A stretch of 64,000 nucleotides of DNA from Siniperca chuatsi. Taxonomy: Eukaryota. Where the stretch lies: the NCBI RefSeq assembly GCF_020085105.1, contig NC_058053.1, positions 24,413,196 to 24,477,195 on the forward strand, in the 5' to 3' direction. Position 1 is the stretch's first letter. Each line of letters begins with the position of its first letter. Below, piece after piece: positions 41,228-57,310 of this stretch. The position numbers and the translations under genes are program-made. The notes under the pieces were generated by a model. The model was not told the DNA's origin. It saw nothing but the letters and a program-made list of their open reading frames with translations, and did not search any database.

Positions 41228-41456
41228 AACTCTGGCCAATGGCCTTCTGCGGAGATATCCCGCCCCTTCCAATCACCGCACAGTATTTGTTCCCGTTAGG
41301 CAAAACACACAGCCAATCAGATGGCTGAATTTGTTCCAATTGCGAGAATCAATGTTTTTGGCATCCAATGGGAGAAGCGGATTTGTTCCAATTTCTCTCA
41401 GTGATCCCGCCTCCTGCAAGCGGACTTTTTACTGCCGCAGAGACAGAAGCAAGTCG
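41228..41456 (+). promoter_or_regulatory. CCAAT-box-dense promoter-like module S1 (unit A) with a short 5' exon ending at donor TCG|GTGAGT
   Basis: Six CCAAT/ATTGG motifs lie in about 230 bp (ggCCAATgg, tcCCAATca, agCCAATc, ttCCAATtg, tCCAATggg, ttCCAATtt), with GC boxes (cccgcccc, cccgcctcc). The exon segment gcagagacagaagcaagtcg precedes gtgagtg (41457). Confidence 0.5.
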
Positions 41457-42214
41457 GTGAGTGAAGCATTTGTCAGTTATTATGAAGTATTGGACGGAAA
41501 ACATGTTAAAAACTTATAATTCCGTCTGACATTAGTCATACTGAGCTAACCGAGGTGTTTATATGTTGGGAAATAGTTGAGTGACGGATGAAACAGCGTA
41601 AAGTTAGAGCATTATTAGTTCTTACAATGTCAGACTTTAATTTTACTGTAAGGAATTTATTATATAAACGTTTTTATAAATTGCTTTGTTTTAGCCATCT
41701 AACGTTCATGCTGTTTAAACCATTTTAAACACTGTACTGCAGGCTGATAGCATGCTAACACACCCACCGCTGTCGGCTGGTCGGTGTGTTTCATACTGCT
41801 TATGTGATTAACAGTCCAGCGGAGCTGAAGGCAGCCGGCATGTTTTATGGGGAAACTAGCAGCTGGTCGAGTGGCTGGTGGATTCCTTAAGCCTTCCTGT
41901 TCCACCAGGAGAGAAAGTGCAGCTCCTCACCGTATGAATATTCAATTAGCCATGCGGCCAGGAAGGTAAACAGAGGCGGAGCCTGCCATAGGTAACAAGC
42001 GGAGAGAAGCAACAGTCAAAAGGTCTCTTTTATTTACAGTTTTTACAATGTACAAAACATCTACTAAGACTCCACACTCTTCTGCAGTAATTCTGCCTCG
42101 GTTAAACTGTTTTAATACCCCCTGAAGCGCTTCTCCAGCTTTGCCACAGCCGGGGATCGAACCGCTGACCGCTGAGCCCCCTCCTCTTTTTACTCAGTCA
42201 ATGAACTGTCGCCT

Positions 42215-42443
42215 CAACTCGGCCAATGGCCTTCTGCGGAGATGTCCCGCCCCTTCCAATCACCGCACAGTATCTGTTCCCGTTAGGCAGAACACACAGC
42301 CAATCCGATGGCTCAATTTGTTCCAATTGCGAGAATCAATGTTTTTGGCATCCAATGGGAGAAGCGGATTTGTTCCAATTTCTCTCAGTGATCCCGCCTC
42401 CTGCAAGCGGACTTTTTACTGCCGCAGAGACAGAAGCAAGTCG
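42215..42443 (+). promoter_or_regulatory. CCAAT-dense promoter-like module S2 (unit A); an internal ~1-kb duplicate of S1
   Basis: Same motif array. The donor gtgagt is at 42444. A tRNA T-arm-like SINE remnant lies just upstream, at 42150-42185. Confidence 0.5.
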
Positions 42444-43065
42444 GTGAGTGAAGCATTTGCCAATTATTATTAAGTATTGGACGGAAAACATGTTAAAAAC
42501 TTATAATTCTGTCTGACATTAGTCATAATGAGCTAACCGAGGTGTTTGTATGTTGTGAAATTGTTGCCTGATGGATGACACAGCGTAAAGTTAGAGCCGG
42601 ACCAGAGCGTTATTAGTTCTTACAATCTCAGATTTTAATTTTACTGTAAGGAATTTACTATATAAACGTTTTTATAAATTGCTTTGTTTTAGCCAGCTAA
42701 CGTTCATGCTGTTTAAACCATTTTAAACACTGTACTGCAGGCTGATAGCATGCTAACACACCCACCGCTGTCGGCTGGTCGGTGTGTTTCATACTGCTTA
42801 TGTGATTAACAGTCCAGCGGAGCTGAAGGCAGCCGGCATGTTTTATGGGGAAACTAGCAGCTGGTCGAGTGGCTGGTGGATTTAAAAAAGTCAATCTAAA
42901 TATAGATTCTCCTGCTTTACAGAGTAAAAAACGTAAGTTTTAATAAACTAATAACAGTGACATGATGTCATTACTATGTCATTTCTTCATAATGTTAGCA
43001 TTTCCCGTTCCTTTCCCTTTAAAAGGAGGGCCCCTAAGGTTTAACTTGTCTTTGTGAACTTGCAG

Positions 43066-43253
43066 GACGCCTTCACCGCTACTCCTCAGCGTACCCTGAC
43101 TTTGTGGAGGCAGTCAGGTTCCACCGGGCGTTTGAGGAGGCCCAGCAGAAGTCCCTCCAGCCCGGTCAGGAGGGACAGGCCCTTGTTGGCCGGGGACTTC
43201 AAATTCGAGACCCTGCAGAGCCTGTACGAGTCTGAGGACCCCAAAAAGATCCG
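43066..43253 (+). CDS. Array ORF unit copy A, exon 2 (first clearly coding exon). Relative to copies B and C it carries a compensated frameshift.
   Basis: ttgcag|GACGCC ... ATCCG|GTATGT. Copies B and C encode DAFTRYSSAYPDFVEAVRFHRAFEEAQQKSLQPGQEGQALVGFGDFKFETLQSLYESEDPKKIR. Copy A lacks 1 nt (caccgctac vs cacccgctac) and 2 nt (ggccgggg vs ggcttcgggg), so the 101 nt in between are read in another frame. Confidence 0.55.
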
Positions 43254-43343
43254 GTATGTTGTAACAAAATGTGGATTATAATGTAGCTGCTGTACTGACC
43301 GGCGGTGATAAGAATGAAATGACAAACTGTCTGATTTACTTAG

Positions 43344-43577
43344 ATTTGTCAACTACCTCCGGAGGAAGGCGCCAGCTCCCGACACGCAGATGGAGAACGC
43401 CGTCCGCTACGTCAGGAGCAGAGACAGGCAGAGAGCTGCTGCTGCTGCAACCGCCACCACTACCGCTGCCGCAGCCGTTCCAACCAGCAGCACCACCACC
43501 ACCACCACAGCTGCAGCCACCGGCAGCAGCACAGCCTCTGTCTCGGCCGCAAGCCAGGGAGCCGGGAGTGCATCACA
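43344..43577 (+). CDS. Array ORF unit copy A, exon 3 (basic N-part plus Ala/Thr-rich low-complexity tract)
   Basis: tacttag|ATTTGTC ... CACA|GTACGT. It encodes (R)FVNYLRRKAPAPDTQMENAVRYVRSRDRQRAAAAATATTTAAAAVPTSSTTTTTTAAATGSSTASVSAASQGAGSAS. The phase is continuous with exons 2 and 4. Confidence 0.55.
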
Positions 43578-55022: not shown

Positions 55023-55049
55023 GCCAACTGAGTCAATGAACTGTCGCCT

Positions 55050-55278
55050 CAACTCTGGCCAATGGCCTTCTCGGAGATGTCCCGCCCCTTCCAATCACCG
55101 CACAGTATTTGTTCCCGTTAGGCAAAACACACAGCCAATCAGATGGCTGAATTTGTTCCAATTGCGAGAATCAATGTTTTTGGCATCCAATGGGAGAAGC
55201 GGATTTGTTCCAATTTCTCTCAGTGATCCCGCCTCCTGCAAGCGGACTTTTTACTGCCGCAGAGACAGAAGCAAGTCG
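55050..55278 (+). promoter_or_regulatory. CCAAT-dense module S1 (unit C)
   Basis: Duplicate. The donor is at 55279. Confidence 0.5.
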
Positions 55279-56036
55279 GTGAGTGAAGCATTTGTCAATT
55301 ATTATGAAGTATTGGACGGAAAACATGTTAAAAACTTATAATTCCGTCTGACATTAGTCATACTGAGCTAACCGAGGTGTTTGTATGTTGTGAAATAGTT
55401 GAGTGACGGATGACACAGCGTAAAGTTAGAGCATTATTAGTTCTTACAATGTCAGACTTTAATTTTACTGTAAGGAATTTATTATATAAACGTTTTTATA
55501 AATTGCTTTGTTTTAGCCAGCTAACGTTCATGCTGTTAAAACCATTTTAAACACTGTACTGCAGGCTGATAGCATGCTAACACACCCACCGCTGTCGGCT
55601 GGTCGGTGTGTTTCATACTGCTTATGTGATTAACAGTCCAGCGGAGCTGAAGGCAGCCGGCATGTTTTATGGGGAAACTAGCAGCTGGTCGAGTGGCTGG
55701 TGGATTCCTTAAGCCTTTCTGTTCCACCAGGAGAGAAAGTGCAGCTCCTCACCTTATGAATATTCAATTAGCCATGCTGCCAGGAAGGTAAACAGAGGCG
55801 GAGCCTGCCATAGGCAACAAGCGGAGAGAAACAACAGTCAAAAGGTCTCTTTTATTTACAGTTTTTACAATGTACAAAACATCTACTAAGACTCCACACT
55901 CTTCTGCAGTAATTCTGCCTCGGTTAAACTGTTTTAATACCCCCTGAAGCGCTTCTCCAGCTTTGCCACAGCCGGGGATCGAACCGCTGACCGCTGAGCC
56001 CCCTCCTCTTTTTACTCAGTCAATGAACTGTCGCCT

Positions 56037-56265
56037 CAACTCGGCCAATGGCCTTCTGCGGAGATGTCCCGCCCCTTCCAATCACCGCACAGTATCTGTT
56101 CCCGTTAGGCAGAACACACAGCCAATCCGATGGCTCAATTTGTTCCAATTGCGAGAATCAATGTTTTTGGCATCCAATGGGAGAAGCGGATTTGTTCCAA
56201 TTTCTCTCAGTGATCCCGCCTCCTGCAAGCGGACTTTTTACTGCCGCAGAGACAGAAGCAAGTCG
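56037..56265 (+). promoter_or_regulatory. CCAAT-dense module S2 (unit C)
   Basis: Duplicate. The donor is at 56266. Confidence 0.5.
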
Positions 56266-56887
56266 GTGAGTGAAGCATTTGCCAATTATTATTAAGTATT
56301 GGACGGAAAACATGTTAAAAACTTATAATTCTGTCTGGCATTAGTCATAATGAGCTAACCGAGGTGTTTGTATGTTGTGAAATTGTTGCCTGATGGATGA
56401 CACAGCGTAAAGTTAGAGCCGGACCAGAGCGTTATTAGTTCTTACAATCTCAGATTTTAATTTTACTGTAAGGAATTTACTATATAAACGTTTTTATAAA
56501 TTGCTTTGTTTTAGCCTGCTAACGTTCATGCTGTTTAAACCATTTTAAACACTGTACTGCAGGCTGATAGCATGCTAACACACCCACCGCTGTCGGCTGG
56601 TCGGTGTGTTTCATACTGCTTATGTGATTAACAGTCCAGCGGAGCTGAAGGCAGCCGGCATGTTTTATGGGGAAACTAGCAGCTGGTCGAGTGGCTGGTG
56701 GATTTAAAAAAGTCAATCTAAATATAGATTCTCCTGCTTTACAGAGTAAAAAACGTAAGTTTTAATAAACTAATAACAGTGACATGATGTCATTACTATG
56801 TCATTTCTTCATAATGTTAGCATTTCCCGTTCCTTTCCCTTTAAAAGGAGGGCCCCTAAGGTTTAACTTGTCTTTGTGAACTTGCAG

Positions 56888-57310
56888 GACGCCTTCACCC
56901 GCTACTCCTCAGCGTACCCTGACTTTGTGGAGGCAGTCAGGTTCCACCGGGCGTTTGAGGAGGCCCAGCAGAAGTCCCTCCAGCCCGGTCAGGAGGGACA
57001 GGCCCTTGTTGGCTTCGGGGACTTCAAATTCGAGACCCTGCAGAGCCTGTACGAGTCTGAGGACCCCAAAAAGATCCGGTATGTTGTAACAAAATGTGGA
57101 TTATAATGTAGCTGCTGTACTGACCGGCGGTGATAAGAATGAAATGACAAACTGTCTGATTTACTTAGATTTGTCAACTACCTCCGGAGGAAGGCGCCAG
57201 CTCCCGACACGCAGATGGAGAACGCCGTCCGCTACGTCAGGAGCAGAGACAGGCAGAGAGCTGCTGCTGCTGCAACCGCCACCACTACCGCTGCCGCAGC
57301 CGTTCCAACC
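56888..57310 (+). pseudogene. Array ORF unit copy C (exon 2 at 56888-57078 and the start of exon 3 from 57169), truncated at the junction with the anomalous block
   Basis: Exon 2 is identical to copy B. Exon 3 matches the copy-A variant. The sequence is cut after gccgttccaacc. Confidence 0.5.

Follow-up and report, generated by a model that had tools for sequence, protein, structure and literature searches.

The 64,000-nucleotide window of Siniperca chuatsi DNA analyzed here contains a head-to-tail tandem array of ORF-bearing units, and the question that it raises is whether these units represent a fast-evolving multicopy gene or a decaying remnant. BLAST self-comparison of the window places the array at 41227..57311 on the forward strand, with a period of ~6.91 kb and 2.33 units (16,085 bp/6,911), in agreement, to within one base, with an earlier note on this DNA that had suggested such a self-comparison. 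Unit A (41227-48139), unit B (48140-55049) and the partial unit C (55050-57311) all share the forward orientation. The segment 41227-50399 matches 48140-57311 with 99.46% identity over 9,185 bp, 41227-43486 matches 55050-57311 with 99.2% identity, and a repeat search yielded the same unit spacings (6,907-6,914 bp). The array is young, contains no Ns and joins unique flanks on the left and right through clean junctions. The within-unit order described previously (modules S1 and S2, an ORF-bearing stretch and a LINE 3′ fragment with (TTCTGA)n) holds; of the 95-99% identity reported among units, the upper value stands (units are 99.2-99.5% identical), while 95% applies only to S1 versus S2.

The protein encoded in the ORF-bearing stretch had been left without a known family in the earlier note. 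An ORF of the window nonetheless matches the Pfam profile DUF6729 (PF20499, E 2.2e-25), and tblastn with Dada-U6_GA from Gasterosteus aculeatus (query sequence from Dataset S1 of PMC3706591) aligns residues 117-181, 174-353, 808-1022, 1118-1221 and 1276-1324 colinearly with 43077-46528, with 74-88% identity and E-values down to 1e-49 in the best blocks. Dada is a superfamily of DNA transposons (Kojima & Jurka 2013, PMC3706591), and the ORF unit is, judging from these alignments, a relic of the intron-containing transposase gene of a Dada-U6-type element, in keeping with the multi-exon origin proposed for it. Relatives of this protein comprise 730 representatives, with full-length members of 900-1,340 aa, a catalytic core 49-57% identical among fish, shrimp, Daphnia and several molluscs, and several identical copies within some genomes. 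The family shows the diagnostic motifs of PMC3706591, MDSTKK (D), YVDRD (D), LDIWH (DxxH) and SLESFH (E), with the D of YVDRD located 68 residues beyond the first D, as in Dada-U6_DR, as well as a C-terminal C-x2-C-x9-H-x8-C finger, another diagnostic feature in that work. Sequence identity to the IS256/Mutator-family DDE transposase ISCth4 (PDB 6xg8) is only 12%, and the Dada family differs from it in having a eukaryotic intron-containing gene with additional zinc fingers.

Along unit A, the coding remains (all on the forward strand) start with a block at 43071..43254, 87% identical to Dada-U6_GA residues 117-181 by tblastn, where a 2-bp deletion at 43190 frameshifts unit A while B and C stay in frame. 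N-terminal linker blocks identified via tblastn with P0010, P0041, P0011 and P0039 follow at 43366..43972, reading FVNYLRRKAPAP..., poly-Ala/Thr and FAAFVSGRRSLSAVEMQ..., the latter interrupted by a 93-bp intron-like gap; TRF locates a (CAG/CAC)n tract at 43485-43535 inside these blocks. Next, coding blocks at 44446..45140 cover an acidic/Pro-rich linker and ~100 residues from the start of the DUF6729 domain (PF20499, tblastn), reading LPESWRAALTVEQQQWIGRVLF...LWWYPP / QTRPIY...WMPHRIWHLQLTCPQP; near 44985, A and B share a frameshift. An inverted-repeat search identified at 45101..45142 (copy B 52008-52049) a perfect hairpin with 14-bp arms, whose 14-nt loop is inverted with respect to other family members (minus-frame tblastn matches to PQPSCTGSMTKAG). 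This hairpin marks the site of a missing ~2 kb, corresponding to Dada-U6_GA residues about 354-860, which encompass the complete DDE core and are lost from both A and B. The C-terminal third of the transposase (residues about 863-1324; tblastn, translation and motif pattern) spans 45170..46528 and closes with the CCHC zinc finger QYTCSKCGQP*RIDTGHTRIAGVSYC, which contains an in-frame TAG at 46412-46414 (B 53319-53321). Dada-U6_GA residues 1-116, and with them a start-codon exon, were not found in the window by tblastn, and the segments corresponding to Sander L001 1902 to 3938 and L002 627 to 2631 are likewise absent from it. The protein looks low in complexity because loss of the catalytic core leaves just the linker regions.

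The earlier note had offered two readings of this unit, and the decaying pseudogene array was the right one. It is extremely improbable that the unit serves as a functional multicopy gene, lineage-specific and evolving fast, or as a domesticated Dada fragment: long open frames do persist in blocks of units B and C, other species share the splice-like boundaries and a CCAAT-rich 5′ region is present, but the start-codon exon is missing, the core has been deleted at a rearranged hairpin, A and B share both the frameshift in the N-terminal domain and the TAG in the C-terminal zinc finger, and comparison of A, B and C reveals additional private frameshifts in each unit. As it reads, the ORF unit can encode neither a transposase nor any conserved protein.

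The relatives in Sander and Trematomus are genuine Dada-U6 elements. The Sander element ends, with CAGAGAAGA / TCTTCTCTG, against an oppositely oriented stretch of U6 (positions 1 to about 66). Trematomus bernacchii locus L004 (CADEHM010000440.1) carries two full-length copies (E1/E2) head to tail between U6 64-97 and U6 1-69, with TTGCGC adjoining U6, a 7,982-bp period, 99.95% identity (4 gaps, 0 mismatches) and CGAAGC at the flank and at the junction, E1 sitting exactly at the 5′ end of E2. S1 and S2, two copies of a 691-bp module that start 987-998 bp apart, had been taken for promoter modules. They are not host promoters, aligning instead to the 5′ terminal 400 bp of Trematomus Dada-U6, colinear through the junction and with the exon-1 splice donor included, and also matching the Sander L001 5′ repeats; by this homology they are transposon 5′ ends, which could well contain the element's own promoter. 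S2 (42221..42882, forward strand; alignment to Trematomus L004 13701-14200, score 210) contains a cluster of TGTTCCAAT/CCAAT motifs (15 observed vs 1.8 expected), a non-coding exon 1, closed at about 42444 by a conserved GTGAGT donor, and the beginning of intron 1.

We infer that each unit consists of two elements placed head to tail on the forward strand: a "mini" element, ~1 kb in length and internally deleted, and a "long" one of 5.9 kb. The mini element of unit A (41233..42214; copies at 48146-49126 in B and 55056-56036 in C) comprises the S1 5′ region to 41884, ~200 bp of uncertain origin (41885-42100) and a 3′ terminal region (about 42100-42214) ending in AATGAACTGTCGCCT. Its 5′ match to Trematomus is strong; the 3′ match to the Sander and Trematomus Dada 3′ ends (84% over 45 bp, E 1e-7; local score 95 vs a shuffle maximum of 55) is short (about 45-100 bp), and this counts against our interpretation. 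The long element of unit A, delineated by alignments and the motif map (42221..48139; copies at 49133-55049 in B and, truncated, 56043-57311 in C), runs from the S2 5′ region through the transposase relic, the 3′ region and an inserted LINE to the final 23 bp of the Dada 3′ end. The 3′ untranslated/subterminal region (46529..47092, forward strand) yields colinear weak matches to the Sander L001 and Trematomus L004 3′ regions and also matches an older relic in the window at 35081-34691, and the final 23 bp, ACTGAGTCAATGAACTGTCGCCT (48117..48139, forward strand; copy 55027-55049), occur again at 42192-42214, before S2. At the sequence level, the 6.9-kb unit resolves into defective Dada-U6-type copies plus one LINE fragment.

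The 3′ block of the unit had been correctly recognized as a LINE 3′ fragment. It is a 5′-truncated copy (47138..48106, forward strand; copy B 54046-55016) encompassing the end of the RT ORF, the 3′ UTR and a (TTCTGA)3 tail (48089-48106 and 54999-55016), set into the long element close to its 3′ end and 83-85% identical to two other LINE copies in the window (13579-14561, reverse strand; 30302-31303, forward strand, the longer one with RVT_1), all three sharing this tail. The mechanism put forward in the earlier note, a segmental tandem duplication broken at the (TTCTGA)n tail through unequal crossing-over or slippage, is very improbable. Simple repeats are known to slip, and the tail does lie close to the unit boundary as phased by BLAST, but the next unit does not begin immediately after it: 33 bp intervene, made up of AAAAGAGCCA and the 23-bp ACTGAGTCAATGAACTGTCGCCT, and at the boundary itself a Dada 3′ end is followed by CAACTC and a Dada 5′ end. 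This junction recurs between S1 and S2 without any LINE, which refutes a breakpoint at the LINE tail, and the true array edges (41227 and 57311) are not LINE tails either. An equivalent junction is present between the full-length Trematomus elements, and an older, inverted and fragmentary Dada relic (32073..36549, reverse strand; 72-95% identical by sensitive blastn, alignment and tblastn) keeps the 3′-region-to-5′-region order with different LINEs in the opposite orientation. In this relic, the 3′ part of the gene and the 3′ region (36549-34691) are followed by unrelated LINE pieces and then, at 33426-32073, by the 3′ terminal region, the 5′ region and the first coding block; the junction bases are not alignable.

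A motif pattern map located CAACTC at 41227..41232 (forward strand), between the left flank and the first Dada 5′ end, and identical hexamers at 42215-42220, 48140-48145, 49127-49132, 55050-55055 and 56037-56042, one per element junction, in the same layout as CGAAGC in the Trematomus pair. Dada target-site duplications (TSDs) are 6-7 bp long (PMC3706591), and CAACTC at the left flank looks as a 6-bp TSD would, making it a candidate for one. On the right, unit C breaks off within a coding stretch at GTTCCAACCA (57302..57311, forward strand), which is native unit sequence (compare 43477-43486 and 50390-50399). The internal GTTCCAAC at which the array breaks here (57302-57309) does not correspond to a transposon terminus, and this edge therefore offers no right-hand TSD to pair with the left one. 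The same GTTCCAAC recurs at 41223-41230, where 4 bp of left flank (GTTC) run directly into the initial 4 bp of CAACTC. An intact U6 snRNA gene, the canonical Dada-U6 target, lies 2.46 kb upstream of the array (38664..38769, reverse strand; Rfam RF00026, 112.6 bits, E 1.4e-28). Besides the non-terminal right edge, it counts against our interpretation that U6 sequence is absent from both array flanks and that the array, with its degenerate termini, lacks the 9-bp subterminal repeats TCTTCTCTG / CAGAGAAGA.

Fish Dada-U6 elements, including Dada-U6_GA, share with the array a colinear transposase, introns, the C-terminal finger, the lack of terminal inverted repeats, a 6-bp hexamer at the ends and an intact U6 gene nearby, whereas the array differs in its missing residues and subterminal repeats, its non-U6 flanks and its LINE insertion. 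Dada-U6N1_DR, a non-autonomous derivative of Dada-U6_DR by internal deletion (PMC3706591), likewise keeps both ends, a logic that fits both the long (core deleted) and the mini element (650 bp of 5′ and ~110 bp of 3′ sequence). The zebrafish elements exist as many near-identical copies, placed exactly within U6 genes and retaining intact TSDs, while the ends of the array are degraded and it is known here from one locus. The closest parallels in arrangement are the tandem Dada-U1 copies Dada-U1A_DR / Dada-U1B_DR, separated by the TSD alone (PMC3706591, Fig. S3), and the Trematomus pair, both with near-identical copies head to tail and a hexamer as sole separator that is also found at the outer flank; those are full-length element pairs bounded by snRNA fragments, whereas the array alternates mini and long elements 2.3 times, with an internal LINE and a non-terminal right edge.

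The frame-changing indels noted between copies are present as described: unit A lacks C at 43075 and TT at 43190, and unit B lacks bases at the equivalents of 43463, 43545 and 43557 and has an additional G at 52547. About 20 of the 49 differences between A and B are 1-3-bp indels, many within homopolymer runs, so some may be assembly errors. That the copy number or small indels are artefacts of a collapsed or expanded repeat or of long-read homopolymer errors is nevertheless improbable overall; the Trematomus pair shows the same error-like pattern of gaps without mismatches, but the flank junctions are clean, Ns are absent, error is unlikely to create at least 2 units, and true substitutions cluster in S1 of unit A. 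This S1 differs from those of B and C by 12 substitutions in 965 bp, against 11 in the remaining 5.9 kb of the unit, a ~7-fold higher divergence which indicates that the array history took more than one step. Unit C had been described as recombinant-looking, combining a B-type exon 2 with an A-type exon 3. Across the three-way overlap, variable sites are private to A (about 18) or to B (4) and none to C, so its mosaic look requires no recombination.

Two further routes to the array can be considered. One is MMBIR/FoSTeS-like template switching during replication, in which a 16-kb block would have been copied into the site out of a longer donor array of Dada elements: the nascent strand would have exited at ...GTTCCAAC, entered the donor at ...CTCAAC through a 4-bp match, copied 2.33 units and returned by the 10-bp GTTCCAACCA match. 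Such a route needs no additional coincidence to explain why the copy number is not an integer and why the right edge is non-terminal, and GTTCCAAC provides an 8-bp identity at both edges (chance about 4^-8), with CA following in native unit sequence and right flank alike; an empty-site allele or orthologue would then read ...CTGCTGTTCCAAC(C/TC)ATATTCATAAG.... We consider it rather unlikely, as no donor array is seen within the window, the left-edge CAACTC reads equally well as a transposon TSD, and an identical sequence would result if the remainder of unit C had been removed by a microhomology deletion or if the array had exchanged with an empty allele. Alternatively, the mini and long elements might have moved together as one composite transposon. 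A transposase acting in trans would then have used the two outermost ends (5′ on the mini, 3′ on the long element), each new copy would have landed at the hexamer beside a resident 5′ end, and the array would have grown through repeated self-targeted transposition and not through recombination. Strict mini-long alternation, CAACTC at the left flank and all junctions, the CGAAGC on both sides of Trematomus E1, exactly at the 5′ end of E2, and the reported tandem Dada copies with the TSD alone between them (PMC3706591) are consistent with this idea. It is unlikely, however, given that the termini lack conserved subterminal repeats, internal mini/long junctions, having the same ends, would be expected to rival the outer ones, the array stops inside an element and not at a 3′ terminus, and unequal recombination of 99%-identical 7-kb repeats gives the same pattern without an active transposase.

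Under our preferred reading, a defective Dada-U6 array, the mini and long elements would first have become adjacent through a Dada insertion precisely beside a resident copy, a known Dada habit. The resident 5′ end shares motifs with the U6 target (TCTTCTCTG, GTTCCAAT). Later, a LINE would have entered the long element close to its 3′ end, and unequal recombination between homologous elements, or a switch of replication template from one to another, would recently have raised the pair to 2.3 copies, with the array truncated or copied in at the internal GTTCCAAC via a microhomology-dependent event. Any movement would require a transposase supplied in trans, and the array termini look too degraded even for that. 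The locus is very probably not a new gene family but the recently amplified wreck of a known fish Dada-U6-type transposon together with a LINE fragment, which would have no function of its own.

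Self-comparison of the window with BLAST, together with repeat finding that gave the same spacings, revealed that positions 41227-57311 constitute a head-to-tail array of 2.33 units with a period of ~6.91 kb, comprising unit A (41227-48139), unit B (48140-55049) and a partial unit C (55050-57311). Segment 41227-50399 is 99.46% identical to 48140-57311 over 9185 bp, and segment 41227-43486 is 99.2% identical to 55050-57311. Within a unit, a 691-bp module occurs twice (S1 and S2, 95% identical and ~990 bp apart) and is followed by a GC-rich ORF-bearing stretch and by a LINE block ending in (TTCTGA)3. 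The earlier note's description of the sequence holds with two corrections: the identity between units, given there as 95-99%, is 99.2-99.5%, and the next unit, said to begin immediately after the microsatellite tail, is separated from the LINE tail by 33 bp.

The product of the ORF-bearing stretch had initially been regarded as not placeable in a known family. A peptide reconstructed from 44821-45160 matched the Pfam domain DUF6729 (PF20499) with an E-value of 2.2e-25, over only the first 78 of the 229 profile positions. A first public protein search returned short fish fragments as matches, a profile search identified 730 representative relatives, with full-length members of 900-1340 aa in many teleosts and amphioxus, and 1161 proteins were recovered when the central region of a full-length relative served as the query. 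This central core is 49-57% identical among fish, a shrimp, Daphnia, an oyster, other molluscs and an annelid, and several identical copies of the relatives occur at different loci within one genome. Conservation of the core across phyla, combined with identical multi-locus copies, is a pattern indicative of transposable elements. Kyakuja-Dileera-Zisupton, MULE, hAT and other Pfam-defined transposases were discarded as candidates, because DUF6729 was the sole match of the full-length relatives in Pfam up to an E-value of 5; a PDB sequence search with a full-length relative yielded no match, and fold comparison was used instead.

The Dada superfamily (Kojima and Jurka, 2013; PMC3706591) encodes a DDE transposase in which a DxxH motif follows the second D and which has two zinc fingers, CCCC at the N terminus and CCHC at the C terminus. 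Its genes contain introns, its elements lack terminal inverted repeats, generate target site duplications (TSD) of 6-7 bp and insert at fixed sites in U6, U1 or tRNA genes, and it is known in fish, Daphnia, oyster and polychaete (PMC3706591). The family motifs MDSTKK, YVDRDCC and CIQDP occur verbatim in Dataset S1 of that work. A tblastn search of the window with the 1324-aa stickleback (Gasterosteus aculeatus) transposase Dada-U6_GA, from the same dataset, revealed co-ordered blocks with E-values down to 1e-49 and 74-88% identity in the best blocks. Residues 117-181 map to 43077-43254 (87% identity), residues 174-353 to 44484-45140, residues 808-1022 to 45059-45784 (with true homology from ~863, YTGELIG), residues 1118-1221 to 45795-46206, and residues 1276-1324, the final residues of the protein, to 46382-46528. 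The coding blocks are split by non-coding gaps of 90-470 bp, in the same order as in the copies of other species, consistent with the intron-containing structure of Dada genes; one intron-like gap spans 93 bp at 43793-43885, and the GTGAGT donor after exon 1 is conserved. The C-terminal CCHC finger (C-x2-C-x9-H-x8-C) is present with exact spacing at 46391-46459 (CSKCGQP*RIDTGHTRIAGVSYC). The tblastn blocks and the DUF6729 match place the ORF unit, on sequence evidence, as a Dada-U6-type transposase gene. By sequence and gene structure, the array elements belong to the Dada-U6 lineage as defective relics, and the locus is a fresh example of an already known element type.

The lesions are extensive. 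The first ~116 codons have no match in the window even by relaxed tblastn, and Dada-U6_GA residues ~354-860, encompassing the entire catalytic core, are missing from the array units, so that the array copies contain neither the DDE triad nor the DxxH motif, both of which are carried by full-length relatives. Approximately 2 kb present in the copy at a Sander vitreus locus (L001) and in a further family copy (L002) are absent at 45139/45140. A perfect hairpin with 14-bp arms and a 14-nt loop lies at this deletion point (45101-45142 in A, 52008-52049 in B), its loop inverted relative to all other family members, with the PQPLCTGSMTKAG motif reading on the minus strand. The position of the hairpin at the deletion break suggests the footprint of a fold-back or template-switch rearrangement or repair. 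Rfam returned only a chance-level mir-575 match at the hairpin. Only the first pair of the N-terminal CCCC finger (CPQPL-C) survives, disrupted by the inverted loop, and the second pair (ECRRC) falls within the deleted part. Units A and B have in common a frameshift between LWWYPP and QTRPIY, and in both an in-frame TAG stands in place of the CGQPK Lys of the C-terminal zinc finger. The missing DDE core marks the window copies as non-autonomous relics, not functional members of the family. What remains consists mostly of Ala/Thr-, Pro- and acid-rich linkers, which explains why only low complexity was seen at first. Of the two interpretations then proposed, a fast-evolving lineage-specific gene is excluded by the core loss, the missing codons, the frameshift and the TAG; a decaying pseudogene array was right, with the qualification that the gene is that of a transposase.

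The element from Trematomus bernacchii (L004, CADEHM010000440.1) aligns over its first ~400 bp with the S module; the alignment takes in clustered TGTTCCA(A/T) and CCAAT motifs as well as a short non-coding exon with its GTGAGT donor. Part of the module also has matches to repeats of the Sander element's 5' region. These alignments show S1 and S2 to be 5' terminal regions of Dada. The S1 spacer, in its last ~100 bp (...GCCACAGCCGGGGATCGAACCGCTGA...AATGAACTGTCGCCT), aligns in turn with the 3' terminal regions of the elements from Sander and Trematomus. A tRNA-derived SINE within this spacer, where GGGGATCGAACC resembles a minus-strand B box, was rejected: ARAGORN and Rfam find none, and the Dada elements of Sander and Trematomus have the GGGGATCGAACC motif conserved in their 3' ends, so that it belongs to the transposon. 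Aligned through the Trematomus tandem junction, the window junction reads ...CTGTCGCCT (3' end), CAACTC, TGGCCAATGGCCTTCTGCGGAG... (5' end), and a regular-expression map located it five times, at 42200-42229, 48125-48155, 49112-49141, 55035-55065 and 56022-56051. At the left edge the sequence is ...CTGCTGTTC, CAACTC, TGGCCAATGG, the array starting exactly with the hexamer. CAACTC thus abuts the left flank and recurs in each of the five internal junctions; truncation at the right end of the array leaves the outer counterpart out of view. No terminal inverted repeats were found around the unit, as reported for Dada (PMC3706591). The 9-bp subterminal inverted repeats described for Dada-U6 (TCTTCTCTG / CAGAGAAGA; PMC3706591) are present in the Sander and Trematomus relatives and absent from the array, which retains only diverged counterparts (CCTTCTGCGGAG).

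Each 6.9-kb unit is best read as two defective elements: a mini element of ~1 kb, made up of a 5' part of ~650 bp, ~200 bp of unassigned sequence and a 3' part of ~110 bp, and a long element of 5.9 kb, in which S2 and the gene relic are followed by the 3' region, the LINE and the final 23 bp of the 3' end. In this two-element model, the mini element is the weakest link, its 3' match being short. An LTR interpretation of the 2.26-kb block 41227-43486, as part of an LTR-internal-LTR-internal-LTR arrangement, was rejected: the block consists of the Dada 5' end and coding exons, and no LTR features and no reverse transcriptase (RT), integrase or gag were found in the unit, the LINE fragment aside.

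Within the LINE block, the ORF at 47163-47675 corresponds to the C-terminal end of an RT protein. The block matches 13579-14561 (-) and 30302-31303 (+) in the window, and a longer LINE copy at 13959-15020 (-), with 85% DNA identity, contains the Pfam domain RVT_1 (E 2.7e-16). All three LINE copies of the window end in GGGGATCAATAAAGT.TTTCTGATTCTGATTCTGA, and the other two reach 63 bp further 5' than the copy in the unit. The RT ORF end, the shorter 5' side and the common tail thus bear out the earlier reading of a LINE 3' fragment as a 5'-truncated insertion, of what we take to be an L2/CR1-like non-LTR retrotransposon (L2-like clade). The longer LINE copies, 13579-15868 (-) and 29045-31303 (+), have the same (TTCTGA)n tail and are 94% mutually identical over parts.

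An older, inverted and fragmentary Dada copy lies at 32073-36549 (-), with 72-95% identity to the unit by sensitive blastn. The 3' part of the gene and the 3' region occupy 36549-34691, and 33426-32073 corresponds to the 3' terminal region, the 5' region and the first coding block. At least two unrelated LINE fragments interrupt this copy, at 33525-33896 (-) and 33775-34519 (+); it is bounded by another RT fragment at 36609-37049 (-), and keeps LSCDLRAIAQLKCRT, a DUF6729 piece lost from the array units. On the 3' side of the LINE tail in the array, AAAAGAGCCA is followed by the 23 bp that terminate the Dada 3' end, and these 23 bp also precede S2, where no LINE is present. The older relic holds the same order of 3' region followed by 5' region, with unrelated LINE pieces in the other orientation, which implies that this order predates the insertion of the LINE found in the unit. 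The duplication breakpoint previously assigned to the LINE tail is therefore not upheld, and the order is a property of Dada-Dada junctions. The LINE would have inserted near the 3' end of the long element before the latest amplification, apparently at the cost of ~100-150 bp of target.

Three-way alignment of the units revealed 49 differences between A and B, ~20 of which are indels of 1-3 bp, many in homopolymer runs, so that part of them may be assembly error. The frame-changing indels described earlier are present in A and B. The block at 43071-43254 is frameshifted in A and in frame in B and C (two tblastn HSPs in A, one in B and in C), the poly-Ala/Thr block has deletions in B, and an extra G at 52547 in B interrupts ...EEMQGRDGQPGY.... 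Variable sites in the 2.26 kb common to the three units comprise ~18 private to A, 4 private to B and none private to C; with every variable site private to A or B, the mosaic look of unit C, described in the earlier note as recombinant-looking, needs no recombination. Unit A has 12 substitutions in its first 965 bp (S1 and spacer) versus 11 in the other 5.9 kb, and S1 of B is identical to S1 of C. Gene conversion from S2 as the source of the extra divergence of S1 in unit A was rejected, since nearly all A-private variants inspected by eye in the S1/S2 alignment are unique to that copy, with S1 of B and C agreeing with S2.

An intact, full-length U6 snRNA gene (38664-38769, (-); Rfam 112.6 bits) sits between the older relic and the array, 2.46 kb upstream of the latter. 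Neither blastn-short nor Rfam to an E-value of 5 detected decayed U6 fragments at the array edges or at the older relic, and no U6 fragment was detectable in the window beyond the intact gene. The Dada copies of the window are near a U6 gene, not inside one. Insertion at U6 positions 65-70, with the transposase opposite to U6, is seen in the Sander and Trematomus loci and not in the array; some Dada copies are reported to have a non-U6 flank on one side (PMC3706591). The Sander element ends ~1.3 kb past the zinc finger, against U6 1 to ~66 in opposite orientation, with CAGAGAAGA inside the element and TCTTCTCTG in U6, in agreement with the description of Dada-U6 (PMC3706591). Comparison of the Sander locus with the window for synteny revealed matches only in the element and U6. 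The Trematomus locus (5831-21790) contains two full-length Dada-U6 elements, head to tail with a period of 7982 bp and 99.95% identical (0 mismatches, 4 gaps). The pair is bounded by U6 64-97 on one side and by TTGCGC and U6 1-69 on the right side, and has CGAAGC at the outer 5' flank and between the elements. These elements look recently active. A third, inverted partial element adjoins U6 64-97 at 5163-5196 of this locus. The Trematomus pair and the array resemble each other as head-to-tail Dada-U6 copies with a common hexamer at flank and junction.

Several other features were identified in the window. The left part contains host-gene exons detected with Pfam at 312-2114 (-), 4043-5219 (-) and 12524-13039 (+), of RING and B-box (TRIM-like), immunoglobulin V-set and calcium homeostasis modulator (CALHM)-like types. 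A dispersed direct repeat (20311-20735 and 25179-25617, 76% identical over ~450 bp) probably represents a further interspersed element. Positions 28348-29007 are occupied by a compound (CA)n-rich minisatellite whose internal repeats measure roughly 50-220 bp; a short piece of it recurs inverted at 31743-31804, and GC skew is strongly negative (-0.25) over 28-30 kb. Both strands have overlapping open frames in the GC-rich region 59800-61300 (GC content up to 58%), which bears no resemblance to the Dada unit.

Dada copies have been reported in tandem, separated by the TSD alone (PMC3706591). In Trematomus, one element has the same hexamer on either side and lies exactly at its neighbor's 5' end. 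TCTTCTCTG and repeats of GTTCCAAT are present in the Dada-U6 5' end, and the same words adjoin the U6 insertion site (...AATCTTCTCTGTATCGTTCCAATTTT...). Because the 5' end bears these U6-site words, insertion beside a resident 5' end is plausible via target recognition by the transposase. The adjacency of mini and long elements may have arisen through such self-targeted insertion, and the strict mini-long alternation, the common LINE and the 99.5% identity would stem from the composite having been amplified later, when homologous elements underwent unequal recombination or template switching. As an alternative, transposition of the mini-long composite as a single unit is weaker. That S1 is older in unit A shows that the array formed in more than one step.

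The edges of the array bear on how it was delimited. Unit C stops inside a coding stretch at ...GCCGTTCCAACCA, followed by TATTCATAAG (57311/57312), which is not a Dada terminus. The sequence GTTCCAAC also occurs at 41223-41230, where GTTC is the end of the left flank and CAAC the start of the hexamer, and an 8-bp identity at both edges is unlikely to have arisen by chance. Beyond it, the left (40907-41222) and right (57312-57622) flanks show no significant similarity, with a local score of 103 versus 74 ± 10 for shuffled sequences, reached by one shuffle in 100, and a BLAST E-value above 0.05. The edges fit a template-switch copy of 2.33 units with return to the original template via the GTTCCAACCA match; they fit equally a microhomology-mediated deletion or an exchange with an empty allele, as well as a transposase acting at the GTTCCAA motif. 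The empty site would read ...GGAATCTGCTGTTCCAAC(C/TC)ATATTCATAAGATAAG... without interruption, its exact form depending on the edge model. We consider it possible, if rather unlikely, that Dada-U6 elements build head-to-tail arrays by self-targeting, their 5' end mimicking the U6 half-site (TCTTCTCTG ... GTTCCAAT) so that new copies land on the hexamer beside a resident one, and that GTTCCAAC at the edges is the mark of a transposase acting at GTTCCAA and not of microhomology alone. The GTTCCAA motif would in that case serve as a cryptic target, or as a pseudo-end within the element.

In the window ORF and in the relatives scanned, one bona fide Dada-U6 locus among them, DUF6729 gave a match and no other Pfam domain was found; the catalytic core downstream of it has no Pfam model. 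DUF6729 hence appears to be the N-terminal zinc-finger region of Dada transposases, a link found in no paper of the literature searched, where a query for "DUF6729" returned none. For annotation, the low-complexity "multicopy gene" is transposon debris, to be masked and not annotated as a gene family. These findings are unsurprising to a transposon specialist; their possible wider use lies in the link between DUF6729 and Dada, in a further case of head-to-tail Dada-U6 elements and in the GTTCCAAC edges. The array and the Trematomus pair add examples of head-to-tail Dada-U6 copies with a common hexamer, and such examples bear on target choice by rare sequence-specific DNA transposons and on the seeding of tandem repeats. 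If self-targeting were true, defective Dada pairs would offer a way for a site-specific transposon to give rise to satellite-like tandem DNA where U6 loci used to be.
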